From assembly GCA_046292385.1 (NCBI GenBank), contig JBKBRF010000050.1, positions 1 to 49,502 on the forward strand: a DNA stretch of 49,502 nt, in the 5' to 3' direction. Made by a program: the position numbers and the translations under genes. Under the pieces are notes generated by a model. That model was given only the letters and a program-made list of their open reading frames with translations, searched no databases and was not told where the DNA came from. Below, piece by piece: positions 12,849 through 19,124 of this stretch (positions are counted from its first letter, which is position 1; each line of letters starts with the position of its first letter). This DNA is from Armatimonadota bacterium. Lineage in GTDB: Bacteria; Armatimonadota; SYMT01.

Positions 12849-12996
12849 TCGCTGCTTCACGGCAGCCAGCATGAGGGGGCGACCCATCCGGTAGGGGCGC
12901 GCCAGATTCCGCAAACTCCTTTCGCCATGGAATGTCCAAATCGTGCGACCGGGCTTCACCTCCGCCGGGGATGCTTCCCCACGTAGACCGCTCATC

Positions 12997-15105
12997 ATGC
13001 CGACCCCTGCTTTTCGCGCACCCGCAGCCAGCCGCAGCGCGGCACTCCTCACGGCAGTACTGCTCCTGGCGAGCACCGCGTGGGCGCTCCACACCCAGGC
13101 GGAGCCCGCCGCATCCGAAGAAGTCACCAGCCCCGAATGGAGGGAGGCGGCGCGGCGCACGCACGCGCGGTTCACCGGACAGCCGGGAACGGTGGCTCAA
13201 TTTGGCGATTCGATCACGGTGACGCAGGCCTTCTGGACGCCGCTGCGCTACGAGCGCCGGAACGCGCCTCCCGAGCTGGAGGCGGCCTTCCGCCGCGTCA
13301 ACACGAAGCTCCGCCCGGAATGCTGGGCCGATTGGAAGGGACCCGCTTTCGGCAGCGAAGGGGGACAAACGACCCGCTGGGCGGAAGCGCACGTCGACGA
13401 GTGGCTGAAGAAGCTGCGCCCGGAGCTGGCCGTCCTCCTCTTCGGCACCAACGACCTCCACTCGCTGGAGCTGCCGGAATACCGGCGCCGGCTGCTCTCC
13501 GTCGCCCGCCGGTGCCAGGAGCAGGGCACGGTCCCGATCCTCACCACCGTTCCGCCCCGCCACGGCTTCGAGCAGAAAGCCGAGCAGTTGGCCCAGGCGG
13601 GGCGCGAGGTCGCCCGCGAGCTTTCGCTGCCGCTGATCGACTATCACGCGGAGATCGTGCGCCGGCGGCCCGACGACTGGGACGGTGCGCTCGACCGGTT
13701 CAAAGAGTTCGACACGTACGAGGTCCCCACCCTGATCTCCCGGGACGGGGTGCATCCCAGCTATCCCACGCGGTTCCAGAACGACTACTCGGAGGCGGGA
13801 CTGCGCTCCAGCGGCTACACGCTGCGCAACTACCTGACGCTGCTGAAAGTGGCGGAGGTGCTGCAGGCCCTCGAGACGCCGCCCCGACCGGAGGCGGCGG
13901 GCGCCGACCGGGGCCGCGCGGCGGTCTCTCCCCCGGGTCAGCCCTGGCATCCGCAGGCGCCTCCACTCCCCCGCCCCACGGGCGAGGTGATCCGCGTCGC
14001 CACCGCCGCCCAACTCTACGAGGCCGCGGCCCGCGTGCGTCCCGGGGGCACGATCCTCCTGGCGGACGGAGAGTACGCGCTCTCCCGTCACGTGGAGATC
14101 CGGACCGACGGCGTGACCCTGCGCGGCGAGAGCGGCGACCGGCACCGCGTGGTGCTCGACGGCGGCGGCACCCTCGGCGAGGCGATCTGGATCACCGCCT
14201 GCTCCGGAGTGACCCTGGCGGACCTGACAGTGCAGAACGTCCGCTGGAACGGCATCAAGATCAACTCCGACACCGGCGTCCAGCGGCTGCGGATCTACAA
14301 CTGCGTGCTCCACAACATCTGGCAGCGGGCCGTCAAGGGGGTGAAGGTGCCCGCCGAGGGCCGGGAGCGGCTGCGCCCGCGCGACTTCCGGATCGAGTAC
14401 TGCCTCTTCTACAACGACCGCCCCAAACGGTTCAGCGACGATCCGGCCGATACGCCGGAGAACTTCAACGGCGACTACGTTGGCGGCATCGACGTGATGT
14501 ACCCGCAGGGCTGGACCGTGAGCGATAACGTCTTCCTCGGCATCCAGGGCCGGAACCGGGAAGCCCGCGGCGCCATCTTCCTCTGGCACGACGCCCGGGA
14601 CTGCCTGGTCGAGCGGAACGTGATCGTCGACTGCGACTCCGGGATCTGCCTCGGGAACGGGCAGCCGCCGCCGGACAGCGCGGTGCACGCCTCGGGCTGC
14701 ACCGTGCGAAACAACCTGATCACCCGCGCGCCGGAGAACGGCATCCTGGCGGACTTCACCCGGGACTGCGCGATCGTGCACAACACGGTCTACGATCCGG
14801 CCGGACGGCTCCGCCGGGGCATTCGCGTGGTCGATGCCGCGGAGGGCCTCTACGTCGCGAACAACCTGCTGTCGGGCCCGAAGATCCTCGTTGAGACCTC
14901 GTCCCCGATCCGGCTCGGCCTCAACCGCGAGGAAGCCCCCGCGGCGCTGTTCGTGGACGCCTCCGCCGGCAACCTCCGGCTGGCGCAGCCGGCTCCGGGC
15001 CTGGTCGACGCGGCGCCGCGGCTTCCGCAAGCGCCGGACGACCTCGACCGCCGCCGCCGGGGATCGCGGGCGGATCTCGGCGCCCACGAGCTCAGTCCCG
15101 AGTAA
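12997..15105 (+). CDS. secreted SGNH/GDSL hydrolase fused to a right-handed beta-helix (pectin-lyase-fold) domain
   Basis: Signal peptide; GDSIT, FGTND, DGVHP (SGNH triad blocks); then PGGTILLADGEY and Asn-ladder beta-helix repeats. Confidence 0.8.
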   Translation: MPTPAFRAPAASRSAALLTAVLLLASTAWALHTQAEPAASEEVTSPEWREAARRTHARFTGQPGTVAQFGDSITVTQAFWTPLRYERRNAPPELEAAFRRVNTKLRPECWADWKGPAFGSEGGQTTRWAEAHVDEWLKKLRPELAVLLFGTNDLHSLELPEYRRRLLSVARRCQEQGTVPILTTVPPRHGFEQKAEQLAQAGREVARELSLPLIDYHAEIVRRRPDDWDGALDRFKEFDTYEVPTLISRDGVHPSYPTRFQNDYSEAGLRSSGYTLRNYLTLLKVAEVLQALETPPRPEAAGADRGRAAVSPPGQPWHPQAPPLPRPTGEVIRVATAAQLYEAAARVRPGGTILLADGEYALSRHVEIRTDGVTLRGESGDRHRVVLDGGGTLGEAIWITACSGVTLADLTVQNVRWNGIKINSDTGVQRLRIYNCVLHNIWQRAVKGVKVPAEGRERLRPRDFRIEYCLFYNDRPKRFSDDPADTPENFNGDYVGGIDVMYPQGWTVSDNVFLGIQGRNREARGAIFLWHDARDCLVERNVIVDCDSGICLGNGQPPPDSAVHASGCTVRNNLITRAPENGILADFTRDCAIVHNTVYDPAGRLRRGIRVVDAAEGLYVANNLLSGPKILVETSSPIRLGLNREEAPAALFVDASAGNLRLAQPAPGLVDAAPRLPQAPDDLDRRRRGSRADLGAHELSPE

Positions 15106-15175
15106 ATCGAGACCCCGGTCGCCCGCCGCGTGCCCTGCCCATCCCCCACAGCTCGATCCGTTCCAGGAGAAGACG

Positions 15176-16423
15176 ATGAACAAAGCCCTGCTGCTTGGCA
15201 GCGCCCTCACCCTCGGCCTCGGCGGCGTTGTAACCGGCGCCGTCACGGAGCCTCCCGCGGCATCCGCGGAGGACCAGGTTACCTGGCTGAACAGCTACGC
15301 CGCCGCCCAGGCAGCGGCGCGCCAGGCGGGAAAGCCGATCTTTCTCGTCTTCCGGTGAGAGCGCTGACCGTCCTGCAAAGGATTTGACGAGCAGGTTGTT
15401 CGTCTTGACCCCGAGATCTCGGAGCTTGCCGGAGAGTTCGTCCTCGCCCGCGTCACCAACATGCGCGGCGTCGATCTGAACCAGTTCGACTTCGACTACG
15501 ACCTCACGTGGGCCGGCTTCTTCATGAACGCCGAGGGGAAGGTCTACGGTCGTTTTGGCGGGAGAGACGGAGAGGACGCCGACGCGCACCTCACGCTCTC
15601 CGGGCTGAAACACGCCATGCGCGCCGCACTGTCCGCCTATCGCCAGACGCCGAACGCCACCCCGGAGCCGTTCCGGAAGAGCGTGGCACGGGCGGAGGAC
15701 TTCCCCGCGGCCGGGCGCCTCAAGGCGGGTGCCTGCATTCACTGCCACAACGTCTACGACTTCGAGCGCGACGCCCTCTTCTCTGCCGGAAAGTGGAAGA
15801 AGGAGCTCGCCTTCGTCTATCCGCCGCCGAAGAACCTGGGGCTCGCCCTCGACCCGGACCAGCAGAGCCGAGTGCAGGCGGTGACGCCCGGCTCACCCGC
15901 GGCGAAGGCCGGGCTGCGCGCGGGCGACCTGCTTCGGACCGTCGGCGGGCGGCCCACCGCGTCGTTCGCGGACGTGCAGTACGCGCTCCATCGAGCGCCC
16001 TCGGAAGGCGCGCTGCCGGTCACCGCGGAACGCGCGGGACAGCCGCTCTCGGTGTCTCTCCCGCTGGCGGCGGGCTGGCGAGAAAGCGATATCTCCTGGC
16101 GCGGCTCCATGTGGGGGATTCCGCCCACGGCTGCAGTCTACGGCCAGGACCTCACGGCGGAGGAGAAGCAGGCGCTCGGCCTCGCGCCGGAGGCGCTCGC
16201 GTTCCGGCAGGGCGACTTCGTGCCCGGTCCGGCTGCCCGCGCCGGCATTCGGGCGAAAGACGTCATCCTCGGCCTGGACGACCGTCCGCTGGAGATGACG
16301 ATGCTGCAGTTCAACGCCTACATCCGGCTGAACTACGAGGTCGGCGACCGCCTCAACTACCGCGTGATCCGCAGCGGCCAGCGGCTGACGATCCCGATCA
16401 CCCTGGAGCGGCGGGACTTCTGA
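15176..16423 (+). CDS. exported thioredoxin-fold/CxxCH/PDZ-PDZ selenoprotein with two in-frame UGA codons (U61, U64), 415 aa
   Basis: AGGAG SD and ATG 15176; signal peptide; W...A...A...GKPIFLVFR-TGA-ER-TGA-PSC-KGFDEQV continues in frame into ORF 15461-16423; SECIS-like hairpins; CIHCH; two PDZ-like units (PGSPAAKAGLRAGD; PAARAGIRAKDVI). Confidence 0.82.
15370..15404 (+). promoter_or_regulatory. candidate bacterial SECIS elements (two tandem hairpins)
   Basis: TCCT-GCAA-AGGA (15371-15382) and GACGAGCA-GGT-TGTTCGTC (15386-15404); both loops start with G. Confidence 0.65.
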
Positions 16424-16518: not shown

Positions 16519-16601
16519 CCTCACCCCCGACCCCTCTCCTGCGAGGAGAGGGGAGCTATGGACGTCAGGCAAGCCTGTTCCCCCTTCCCTCGCAGGGAAG
16601 G
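16519..16601. repeat. CCTCACCCC..CCCCTCTCC..GGAGAGGGG palindromic repeat pair between convergent genes
   Basis: Hairpins CCCCTCTCCT-GCG-AGGAGAGGGG and CCTTCCCT-CGC-AGGGAAGG. Confidence 0.7.
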
Positions 16602-16644
16602 CTTATCCTGGATGGGGGAGATCAGGGGGCGAGCTCCGGGGGCT

Positions 16645-17454
16645 CTAACCGGAACCGAACGGAAGCGCCTCCCCCGAAAGCATCGCCGGGGAGCGACCTT
16701 CCGGCGACTCGCAACAGATGATACCTTCGTCGGTAAACGGGGCGTGGACGAGCCGCCGGACTCCCGCCCGGACCGGATCGAAGCTATCCGGCCAGCGGGT
16801 CAGCTCGTCACAGACAGCGCTGCGGAAATCGGCCCCCAGCAGCGCCGCGCCGCGCAGGTCCGCCCCGCTCAGGCAGGCGCCGCGCAGATCGCAGTCCGTG
16901 AGGTCGGCGCTGCGCAGGATCGCCCGGGCCAGGTCGGCGCCGCGGAGATCCGCCTCGGCCAGTACCGCCGCCTCCAGCGTGGCACCCCGGAAGACGGCCC
17001 GGCGGAGTCCCGCTCCGGTCAGGTAGGCTCGGGAGAGATCGGCGCTCCGGAACGACGCGTCGGTGAAGATCGCCAGCTCGGCCCGCACTCCCACGAGCCG
17101 CGCGCGGAGAAAGAGGGCGTCGGTCGCAATGGCGCCGTCGAGCCGCGCGTCCTCCAGGTCCGCGCCGATCAGGCAGGCGCCCCACAGGCTGCAATCGTCC
17201 AGGTCCGCCCGCCGGATCGAGGCACCGGCCAGCTCGGCACCGCGAAAGTCGCTGCCGCAGAGGCGGCACTCATCCAGCACGGCGCGGGTCAGGTTCGCCT
17301 CCCGCAGGCTCACCCGGAGCAGCGTGGCGCCGCGGAGGCTCTGCTCCTGCAGCGCCGCTCCCGCCAGGCTCTCGTGGGAGACGAACATTCCCTCCAGCGT
17401 GGGGCCGGGCACGGCGCGCATCGGGGCGCCGCTCCGGCGCGAACGGATCACCAT
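16645..17454 (-). CDS. pentapeptide repeat protein
   Basis: Long run of A(D/N)LxX repeats; C-terminal TRWPDSFDP. Start uncertain. Confidence 0.9.
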   Translation of the reverse strand: MVIRSRRSGAPMRAVPGPTLEGMFVSHESLAGAALQEQSLRGATLLRVSLREANLTRAVLDECRLCGSDFRGAELAGASIRRADLDDCSLWGACLIGADLEDARLDGAIATDALFLRARLVGVRAELAIFTDASFRSADLSRAYLTGAGLRRAVFRGATLEAAVLAEADLRGADLARAILRSADLTDCDLRGACLSGADLRGAALLGADFRSAVCDELTRWPDSFDPVRAGVRRLVHAPFTDEGIICCESPEGRSPAMLSGEALPFGSG

Positions 17455-17565
17455 CCTGCACCGCGATTTCCAGAGAGCGCGGTCGCGTGCCGCGCGAGAA
17501 GACTGCACTCCGTTTCTACCCGTCGTCTCCCGGCGCTCACACTCCGGTTCTCCCGCCCCCTCCCC

Positions 17566-18213
17566 TCAGGCAGCGCGGTCGGGGGCTTCCACGGCGAGCG
17601 TCGGTACGTCGACTTCTCCCCGGTCTGCCGCGTCGTCCTCGACCTCCTCGGTATGCTCGGTCACGTCCCCCACCACCTTGCCGCCGAGGGTCTGCGCCCA
17701 CGACTTCAGGAACTGCGACCAGATGGTGCTCTGCACCGCCTTGCCGCCCAGCTCGTAGGCGGCGGAGCGGACCACGTCCCGGATGCGCGCCCGGGTGCGG
17801 ATCCGGAGCACGAGCGCGCCGTCCTCGTCCTGCGTCGCCGCAAAGGTGACCCGGCCGGACTCCATGTGTCCGCTCTGGGTGCGGAGGGTCAGGCTCCGCT
17901 CCTCCACCGCCACCGCCACCACGCCGGCATGGCCGCCGCCGGTGAGGCGCACGTGCATGGTGTCGCCCTCTTCCAGCAGCTCGCCGCCGCCGTCCGGGCG
18001 CTTGAAGCCGGCGAGCAGCTCCGGGGAGTAGTCCGGGAAGTTCCGCCGCAGGGCGAGCAGCGCCTGCTCCGGCGAGACCGGACACTCCTCGATCTTCAAG
18101 AGCCAGTCCCGCTGGTAGAGCGGGCCCACCCCATCGGTGGCAACCTGGACCGGCCGCTTCTCCTCCCGGGTCCGCTCCGCCTCGTGCTCCGGAGTCCGCT
18201 GCGCGTCTCGCAC
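17566..18213 (-). CDS. DUF1990-like / SRPBCC-type hypothetical protein
   Basis: DGVGPLYQRD and TLRTQSGHMESGRVTF motifs. Confidence 0.65.
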   Translation of the reverse strand: MRDAQRTPEHEAERTREEKRPVQVATDGVGPLYQRDWLLKIEECPVSPEQALLALRRNFPDYSPELLAGFKRPDGGGELLEEGDTMHVRLTGGGHAGVVAVAVEERSLTLRTQSGHMESGRVTFAATQDEDGALVLRIRTRARIRDVVRSAAYELGGKAVQSTIWSQFLKSWAQTLGGKVVGDVTEHTEEVEDDAADRGEVDVPTLAVEAPDRAA

Positions 18214-18248
18214 TCCCGCCTCCCGTCATGTCGACCCCAACGACTGCT

Positions 18249-19124
18249 TCACGAGCTTTGTAGCCGGGACGGCGGGGAATCACACCCGGCAGGCCGCTCC
18301 AGGCGCTGACCGCTGGGCAGCTCCCAGGTGGGGCGCTGGCGGCAAAACGGCATCCGGAGCAGGCTGAGGAAGGTCAGCTCCGAGGGATCGCGATAGGCCG
18401 GCACGCCGATCGTGATCGCGTCCTGCGGGACGTCGAGGCGGAGGGTGCGGAGCAAGCGGTCCCACCAGGAGAAGATGACGCCCCAGTTGGAGTTCGTCTC
18501 CCGCTCCACGATCGAGTGATGGATCCCGTGCATCCGCGGGGTGACCACCACCCAGTTAAGCGCCCGCTCCAGGCGGGCCGGGAGCCGCCAGTTGCTGTGG
18601 TGGAACTCCGTCGCCGCTTCCTGCACGATCTCCCACGCCAGCACCAGCAGCGGCGCCGCGCCGATCAGCAGCACCTGCCCGCACCGCCAGCCAACCGAGA
18701 GCAGCAGCTCTCCGAAGTGGAAGCGGACTGCCGTGGAGACGTCGAGGTCGAGGTCGGTGTGGTGCACGTGGTGGAAGCGCCACAGGAACGGCACGACGTG
18801 GTTCAGGTAGTGCCAGACCCAGATGGTGAAATCGAGCAGCAGCAGCCCCGCGAGCCACTCCACCGGGGCGGGGAGCCGCACCAGGTGCAGCAGCCCCCAG
18901 CCCTCTCGCTCCGCCAGCGCGGCGACCCACACCACCACCGGAATCAGGACCAGGCGCAGCAAGAGAGTCGCGGTGGCCGCCAGCGCCCCGTTGGTCAGGA
19001 GCCGCTCCAGCCGCGGCTGCACCCGTCTCCGCAGCGGGCGCCACGTCTCCAGCAGCAGGAAAAACAGGAACAATCCGAAGAGGAGCGGGCCGCCGAGGAA
19101 GTCGAGGATCGGGTAGAGCTCCAT
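18249..19124 (-). CDS. sterol desaturase / fatty acid hydroxylase family protein
   Basis: His boxes WHYLNH, HHVHH, FHHSN, HGIHH; WDRL. Confidence 0.93.
   Translation of the reverse strand: MELYPILDFLGGPLLFGLFLFFLLLETWRPLRRRVQPRLERLLTNGALAATATLLLRLVLIPVVVWVAALAEREGWGLLHLVRLPAPVEWLAGLLLLDFTIWVWHYLNHVVPFLWRFHHVHHTDLDLDVSTAVRFHFGELLLSVGWRCGQVLLIGAAPLLVLAWEIVQEAATEFHHSNWRLPARLERALNWVVVTPRMHGIHHSIVERETNSNWGVIFSWWDRLLRTLRLDVPQDAITIGVPAYRDPSELTFLSLLRMPFCRQRPTWELPSGQRLERPAGCDSPPSRLQSS

Follow-up and report, generated by a model that had tools for sequence, protein, structure and literature searches.

A Trx7/PDZ (seleno)protein gene with two in-frame UGA codons, probably both read as selenocysteine, in an Armatimonadota bacterium

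The DNA analyzed here (the window) comprises positions 1 to 49,502 of contig JBKBRF010000050.1 of the Armatimonadota bacterium assembly GCA_046292385.1, and its forward strand carries a gene of the Trx7/PDZ (seleno)protein family in which the coding frame is crossed by two UGA codons (Table 1). From the ATG the frame leads through GKPIFLVFR, TGA (15356-15358), GAG CGC, TGA (15365-15367), and CCG TCC TGC, and it then stays open to the TGA at 16421-16423. When the two internal TGAs are translated as selenocysteine (Sec, or U in motifs), the product has 415 residues and contains the motif U61-E-R-U64-P-S-C67; under genetic code table 11, the same DNA yields a stub ending at 15358 and an open reading frame (ORF) at 15461-16423 (320 aa). 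A previous annotation made from the letters of this DNA alone, here called the sequence-only reading, had proposed that the frame behind a Shine-Dalgarno sequence and ATG 15176 continues through both TGAs to 16423, giving a 415-aa protein with a signal-peptide-like start, a thioredoxin fold, a CxxCH motif, and two PDZ domains. These coordinates and this architecture hold: 15176-16423 is one real gene, a Pfam scan of its translation places Thioredoxin_7 at residues 36-109 together with two PDZ stretches, and the start reads as a probable signal peptide.

Table 1. Features of the two-UGA gene and its immediate surroundings (window coordinates)
Feature	Position	Strand	Basis or remark
Shine-Dalgarno-like AGGAG	15165..15169	+	6 nt 5' of ATG 15176; read from sequence
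Single coding sequence, 415 codons + stop, Trx7/PDZ (seleno)protein	15176..16423	+	TGA 15356 and TGA 15365 taken as selenocysteine
Probable Sec-type signal peptide, residues ~1-22 (MNK, hydrophobic run, T-G-A)	15176..15241	+	inferred from sequence
Thioredoxin_7-type thioredoxin fold, residues 36-109 by Pfam, fold to ~residue 128	15281..15502	+	PF13899, 41.2 bits
UGA1, residue 61, first redox-motif position, Cys in most relatives	15356..15358	+	sequence, relatives
UGA2, residue 64, usual Sec position of the family	15365..15367	+	TGA in 80/80 related loci kept
Cys67 codon TGC, third residue of U-x-x-U-x-x-C, inside mini-hairpin loop	15374..15376	+	sequence
Mini-hairpin GUCCU-GCAA-AGGAU	15370..15383	+	fold; UxxU vs CxxU comparison; synonymous-codon controls
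SECIS (selenocysteine insertion sequence) hairpin GACGAGCA-GGU-UGUUCGUC, 8-bp stem, loop GGU	15386..15404	+	fold, covariation, bSECIS criteria
Invariant C-x-H-C-H (C187, H189, C190, H191)	15734..15748	+	alignments A1, A3, A4
PDZ domain 1, residues 222-296	15839..16063	+	Pfam PDZ_2, PDZ_6, PDZ; Foldseek DegP/DegQ/RseP tandems
PDZ domain 2, residues ~343-409	16202..16402	+	Pfam and NCBIfam second stretch; model secondary structure; Foldseek

The gene belongs to a known family. NCBIfam NF041199, 'Trx7/PDZ domain-containing (seleno)protein', matches residues 36-409 with 443.5 bits (cut-off, 300), in agreement with the family that the sequence-only reading had named, and a profile search of the genome contigs with the two TGAs read through scored the window gene at 427.1 bits. 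In the Global Ocean Sampling (GOS) survey of Zhang and Gladyshev (PMC2398784), the family was first catalogued in 2008 as 'putative secreted serine protease MucD', from two Sec sequences and 12 Cys homologs with a CxxU motif. A 2022 review (PMC9312934) names it 'PDZ domain-containing protein', and both that review and one of 2026 give it as CxxU, with one Sec. In common with NF041199, the window gene encodes a signal peptide, Thioredoxin_7, CxHCH, and a pair of PDZ domains in that order, places a Sec codon at residue 64, and has a SECIS hairpin encoded by D-x-Q-V-V-R. It differs from the form given in the reviews in that the first Cys codon is also TGA, giving UxxU and two Sec residues, and it has an extra hairpin in the spacer after UGA2. 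Searches of the literature, outside supplements and subscription journals, turned up no report of UxxU in the Trx7/PDZ family. What is unusual here is the two-Sec form and its extra hairpin; the recoding system and the family were known, as was the notion that one SECIS may serve two UGAs.

Public annotation follows the table 11 reading of these genes. As had been predicted for standard gene callers, 119 of the best 120 of 869 database homologs, the set inspected, are entries of 317 to 366 aa that cover 76 to 84% of the query and lack the thioredoxin domain, under names such as 'serine protease Do', 'predicted metalloprotease with PDZ domain', 'RseP', or 'hypothetical'. With the family held almost only as headless 'PDZ protease' fragments, its redox domain, and hence its likely function, is systematically overlooked. 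Taken at face value, these entries would favor UGA1 as a true stop, the locus then being a pseudogene or a pair of genes, one for a 60-aa stub and the other, with its start at ATG 15461, for a headless PDZ protein, precisely the two products that table 11 yields. We regard this as very improbable. In all relatives the reading frame is conserved between the TGAs and ATG 15461, a stretch that completes the thioredoxin fold; relatives of the Cys type have one undivided gene; and the structural model described below is one compact protein (pTM, 0.88). A relative of ~90% identity keeps both TGAs amid 37 other changes, and UxxU occurs in at least five lineages, and twice in the window genome, always with the SECIS hairpin. 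Separate genes for the two halves elsewhere would have spoken for the split, and the halves are joined in one gene in all relatives examined.

The relatives come from two samples. In a phylum sample of 401 genomes (matches at E ≤ 1e-40), 35 matches were found in 26 genomes: seven with two TGAs (in genomes G000, which is that of the window, G236, G258, and G048), six with one, and 22 with none. Translation of 31 of the 35 gave seven UxxU, six CxxU, and 13 CxxC motifs, and five in which Cys is followed by a non-Cys second residue (CARR, CERR, CFKM, CPVR, and CQRE). The second sample, of related loci from one genome per species, was drawn with the Sec-type alignment A2 and leans toward Sec-type genes; the same scan with the broad alignment A1 detected no conserved stretch. 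Among the best 80 of its 239 loci (73 typed at the first column at the outset and seven later, as a hold-out), column 64 is TGA in all 80 and column 61 is TGA in 12 and TGC or TGT in 68. Merging the samples and dropping four duplicates left 82 distinct Sec genes, 14 UxxU and 68 CxxU. The middle residues of the UxxU motif vary (UERU, UEKU, UEEU, USHU, UIPU, UHHU, UVPU, and UGHU). Cys or TGA at both columns, with both flanks conserved, is what the sequence-only reading had expected of homologs. Because both TGAs fall on columns with Cys or TGA in relatives, between flanks that are 41 to 59% identical, sequence comparison indicates that they are not there by chance. By a count made by eye, Cys67 is kept in 72 of 74 CxxU genes versus 10 of 15 UxxU genes; Sec at both motif positions may make this residue dispensable.

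The titles of the related contigs are mainly those of Planctomycetota, chiefly Gemmataceae. Some contigs (L058/L129, L084, L091, L093, L110, L118, and L137) are titled Actinomycetota, Alcaligenaceae, Armatimonadetes, or Abditibacteriales, and in L058, L129, L118, and L137 the 87-nt segment holding the motif and the SECIS is identical to that of loci in genomes placed in the window's phylum; the divergent labels may be binning or naming errors.

All four components of the selenocysteine machinery whose presence had been anticipated were found in the window genome (7.04 Mb in 91 contigs, 98% complete), which was assigned to Planctomycetota in the analysis. Profile searches returned selA (577.9 bits), selB (367.5 bits), and selD (362.3 bits) over their cut-offs, and a genome-wide search with RF01852 found one tRNA-Sec (UCA), the selC product, likewise over its cut-off (66.6 bits). 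The tRNA-Sec gene, selD, and selA lie side by side outside the window, at C11:87434-90122. SelD is probably itself a selenoprotein, since selD has one in-frame TGA. Three copies of NF041199 in this genome score over the cut-off: the window gene, a paralog at C39:50370-51512 that has two TGAs and reads FRUERUTSCK, and a paralog at C59:20602-21771 that has one TGA and reads LRCVPUAAC.

Both TGAs also recur in independent data, here in Logan contigs rather than raw reads. A contig of the probable source run (word depth, ~51) spans 15100-15409 with 0 differences; a contig of a soil run from another study (X7) spans 15331-15557 with one difference, at 15534; and a contig of a third run (X3), ~90% identical, spans 15244-15631 and differs at 37 positions, all outside 15356-15367. 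Because independent contigs from other samples keep both codons, assembly error can be dismissed as the source of the TGAs, to the extent that contigs allow. Separately, short contigs of two soil and root runs (X2 and X3) match 15332-15378 with four differences and continue into a SECIS of the type found in the C39 paralog (GACTCACAGGTGGTGAGTC), so a paralogous UxxU gene occurs in those samples too.

On a FastTree tree of 89 rows, which included 14 of 18 non-Sec homologs and excluded seven proteins of <330 aa and the seven late-typed loci, the 11 UxxU rows need eight label changes, at least five of which are forced by branches with support of ≥95. The window gene groups with two other UxxU genes, one UEKU and one UEEU (support, 95), in a clade that adjoins CERU genes, and the C39 paralog is sister to a CERU gene from a genome of the same family. 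On this tree, the two-Sec form is recurrent and is retained within clades, which argues against a pseudogene, and its having arisen at least five times in the family speaks for selection in its favor and not for chance.

The SECIS, which the sequence-only reading had left unlocated, is the hairpin at 15386-15404. It folds at -8.7 kcal/mol and is encoded by D-E-Q-V-V-R. The bacterial SECIS (bSECIS) model given in the legend to Fig. 2 of a 2026 review (PMC13188914) describes a loop of 3 to 9 nt with G in its first two positions, a stem of 4 to 16 bp, a UGA-to-loop distance of 16 to 37 nt, and a minimum free energy (MFE) of ≤-7.5 kcal/mol. The window hairpin agrees with this model in every respect, the distance to its loop being 26 nt for UGA2 and 35 nt for UGA1; since both spacings are within 16 to 37 nt, one element can formally serve both codons. 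A single SECIS for both UGAs of UxxU motifs has likewise been proposed for group 4 [NiFeSe] hydrogenases, in a 2026 paper. All 82 Sec genes have the hairpin, in the same position whether they are CxxU or UxxU, and 17 non-Sec homologs lack it: Sec genes form on average 7.7 of the eight pairs (minimum, 6), and the same positions in the non-Sec homologs form 2.2 (maximum, 5). In alignment A5 of the 82 genes, 96.8% of the 656 pair cells are paired, versus 26 to 54% when the 3' partners are slid by one to three columns. Three of the eight pairs vary on both sides, one of them occurring as GC 31, AU 29, GU 12, and CG 10 times.

An AlphaFold2 model built from a 52-row alignment has a predicted local distance difference test (pLDDT) score of 91.2 and a predicted template modeling (pTM) score of 0.88, with residues 1-31 below a pLDDT of 50, as expected for a signal peptide and linker. 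The N-terminal domain (pLDDT, 89.1) has strand 1 at residues 55-60 and helix 1 from residue 65, so that the UGAs come just after the first beta-strand, as had been proposed. Because they lie between this strand and this helix in the modeled secondary structure, U61 and U64 are inferred to occupy the place of the thioredoxin CxxC, with C67 one turn further on. Foldseek matches of this domain include AGR2 (9i3u_B, E = 2.2e-5), ERp19 (1sen), DsbD-gamma, DsbH, and a putative exported cytochrome c biogenesis-related protein (3f9u), and those of the C-terminal half are the PDZ tandems of DegP, DegQ, and RseP. For the helical region at residues 141-221 there was no PDB fold match, Foldseek aligning the thioredoxin part only. 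In alignments A1 (18 rows), A3 (52 of 52 rows), and A4 (30 rows), which include members that lack the redox pair, CxHCH is invariant; as judged from these sequences, nothing in the family is more conserved than this motif, the thioredoxin motif included. It matches CXXCH, the pattern of c-type cytochromes, and may hold heme or a metal; the Pfam scan found no cytochrome family.

The features of the sequence suggest that the product is most likely an exported selenol/thiol-disulfide oxidoreductase. Both UGAs would be read as Sec by SelA, SelB, SelC, and SelD, directed by the single SECIS; the two Sec residues, standing in place of the CxxC pair, would cycle between diselenol and diselenide as the redox center; the PDZ domains would hold a substrate polypeptide; and the helical linker between the thioredoxin and PDZ domains would carry the invariant CxHCH. 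Natural examples of a diselenide redox center, which a two-Sec thioredoxin-fold protein would have, are few. The sequence-only reading had suggested a diselenide as well; its placement of the two residues at the CxxC site agrees with the model, and the putative diselenide was stated too strongly there.

We put at roughly 0.8 the probability that this is one gene in which both UGAs are decoded as Sec through a single SECIS and that its product is an exported, diselenide-containing Trx/PDZ protein; Sec insertion at both codons, the sharing of one SECIS, the diselenide, the holding of substrate, and export are predictions drawn from sequence. Several points weigh against it. UGA-SECIS spacing is reported to be strict in Escherichia coli. 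The 35-nt spacing of UGA1 is near the upper limit of the 16- to 37-nt model. Among three other UxxU genomes searched, selA was not found in one, which is 72% complete. A full-length homolog, P0027 (416 aa, 49 to 52% identical to the window protein), has Asp at both columns (F-R-D-E-R-D-K-L-C) while retaining CIHCH and the PDZ domains, and the second redox residue is lost in five of the 31 phylum homologs (L046, L048, L049, L052, and L055); the family can therefore do without the redox pair.

The last point of this kind concerns the decoding of UGA1. According to the 2026 hydrogenase paper, a tRNA-ReC reads UGA as Cys through SelB and is enriched in genomes with UxxU hydrogenases. UGA2 alone might accordingly encode Sec here, UGA1 being read as Cys by such a SelB-dependent tRNA-Cys or as another residue by near-cognate readthrough, and the mature motif would be CxxU, the norm of the family (68 of the best 80 of 239 loci). 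ARAGORN in fact called a 97-nt 'tRNA-Cys(GCA)' 5 kb from selC, at C11:92717-92813, and a second 'tRNA-SeC' at C77:16947-17029. Neither call matches the Rfam tRNA or tRNA-Sec models at E ≤ 10, and neither appears in the genome-wide RF01852 search; the first is a perfect 16-bp hairpin after a stop codon, overlapping the end of a convergent ORF, and is thus terminator-like. A genome-wide search for tRNA-ReC with ARAGORN and Rfam models supported none, although unusual tRNAs may escape such models. Moreover, diverged UxxU clades retain TGA at column 61, for which there would be no reason if TGC were equivalent. We consider a residue other than Sec at position 61 decidedly improbable and prefer Sec at both positions.

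The RNA between UGA2 and the SECIS is of particular interest. Its 18 nt fold as a mini-hairpin, which begins 11 nt downstream of UGA1 and 2 nt downstream of UGA2. Measured on a 20-nt segment, the mean MFE is -5.2 kcal/mol in UxxU genes (n = 14) versus -2.2 kcal/mol in CxxU genes (n = 68), and values of ≤-2 kcal/mol are reached by 14 of 14 versus 34 of 68 genes. Synonymous-codon controls, in which the amino-acid sequence was fixed and the codons alone were resampled, gave expected MFEs of -2.9 (UxxU) and -2.1 (CxxU) kcal/mol with pooled codon usage, the observed values falling at median percentiles of 0.12 and 0.64, respectively; with each gene's own codon usage, the expected values were -3.0 and -2.1 kcal/mol and the percentiles 0.11 and 0.58. 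Mean G+C content at third codon positions (GC3) is 0.762 in UxxU and 0.767 in CxxU genes. A Mann-Whitney test on raw MFE gave a p of 1e-5, which overstates the case because the genes are related. Taking one gene per UxxU lineage (eight on the tree plus two short, unplaced ones), Fisher's combined p was 0.0018, or 0.0075 for the eight placed lineages only, and none of 2000 random sets of 10 CxxU genes reached the combined p of the UxxU lineages. The held-out UxxU locus (UGHU) folds at -5.8 kcal/mol, and six held-out CxxU loci fold at -0.4 to -2.7 kcal/mol.

One explanation would give each UGA its own signal, the mini-hairpin acting as a second, minimal SECIS for UGA1 and the main hairpin serving UGA2 alone. 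The loop of the mini-hairpin is 16 nt from UGA1 (with an 11-nt spacer), within the 16- to 37-nt range, and begins with G, and the structure is stable in every UxxU gene versus half of the CxxU genes and stabler than synonymous expectation in UxxU genes only; the held-out UxxU locus has it as well. However, its MFE of -5.2 kcal/mol is above the bSECIS limit of -7.5, its loop is GCAA instead of starting with G followed by G or U, its register and loop sequence vary between lineages, and the main hairpin is already within range of UGA1. A second SECIS therefore seems unlikely. Because the mini-hairpin departs from the bSECIS rules and varies in register and loop, we read it instead as a possible helper or spacer structure. 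More specifically, and tentatively, since we hold it to be less probable than not, the mini-hairpin may be a selected RNA device specific to two-Sec genes. It would stay folded at the mRNA entrance of the ribosome during decoding of UGA1 and so bring the single SECIS, at a distance of 35 nt, close enough to function, or else act as a weak auxiliary SECIS; on moving 9 nt to UGA2, the ribosome would melt it. If true, this would be a general solution for the bacterial recoding of two close UGAs despite the UGA-SECIS spacing rule. How SelB and the SECIS handle two UGAs is explicitly left open in the 2026 hydrogenase paper, and related CxxU and UxxU genes with one common SECIS and a UxxU-linked extra hairpin make a compact, testable system for UGAs 9 nt apart.

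Several known systems resemble the window gene in part. Its tandem PDZ fold is like that of DegP/DegQ/HtrA and RseP (3otp_D, E = 7.2e-11 in Foldseek), but unlike HtrA/DegP it has no protease domain in Pfam and NCBIfam scans. An identity as an HtrA/DegP serine protease was accordingly rejected: the match to degP_htrA_DO (TIGR02037) amounts to 64.5 bits (cut-off, 416.2) and is confined to PDZ residues. SelL, for which a 2007 paper reportedly describes a diselenide and a single SECIS shared by two UGAs, likewise has UxxU in a fold of the thioredoxin superfamily, as does the bacterial 'Prx-like thiol:disulfide oxidoreductase' (PF00578). The window protein differs from both in its fold class, which is that of AGR2 and DsbD-gamma and not of peroxiredoxins, and in its PDZ domains and CxHCH; no match to PF00578 (AhpC-TSA) or PF08534 (Redoxin) was found at E ≤ 0.1, and a SelL or Prx-like identity was set aside.

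UxxU motifs had been called rare in the sequence-only reading, with SelL as the classic case. The two-Sec form is real, but its novelty was overstated: the family has been known since 2008, and the 2022 and 2026 reviews give UxxU for a Prx-like oxidoreductase, a putative mercuric reductase, and FmdB, to which the 2026 hydrogenase paper adds the group 4 [NiFeSe] hydrogenases as a fourth family. These hydrogenases share with the Trx7/PDZ genes the interleaving of CxxU and UxxU forms on the tree and the conservation of the SECIS between forms. They differ in that their pair ligates nickel whereas the window pair sits in a thioredoxin redox motif, in that an extra hairpin is not reported in that paper, and in the enrichment of tRNA-ReC, a tRNA that ARAGORN and the Rfam models did not find in the window genome.

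Six Sec-type genes (L054, L088, L096, L101, L102, and L110) measure 241 to 283 residues from the thioredoxin start to a stop or the contig end, in a reading that stopped at TAA, TAG, or a further TGA; a single PDZ domain, a broken gene, or the end of the contig may account for each. A search for a conserved neighborhood around the 82 loci found none that is widely common. The best shared neighbor is an ORF lacking a Pfam family, in 17 of the 82 loci, followed by a protein kinase (nine) and a sulfatase (eight); none of these is in the window, the neighbors in which give no functional lead. Upstream, at 12943-15105 (+), lies a gene for a GDSL-lipase/right-handed beta-helix (NosD-like) protein. 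On the other side, a 583-aa ORF at 16558-18309, for which the Pfam scan gave no family, is followed by a gene for a fatty-acid hydroxylase family protein at 18249-19124 (-).

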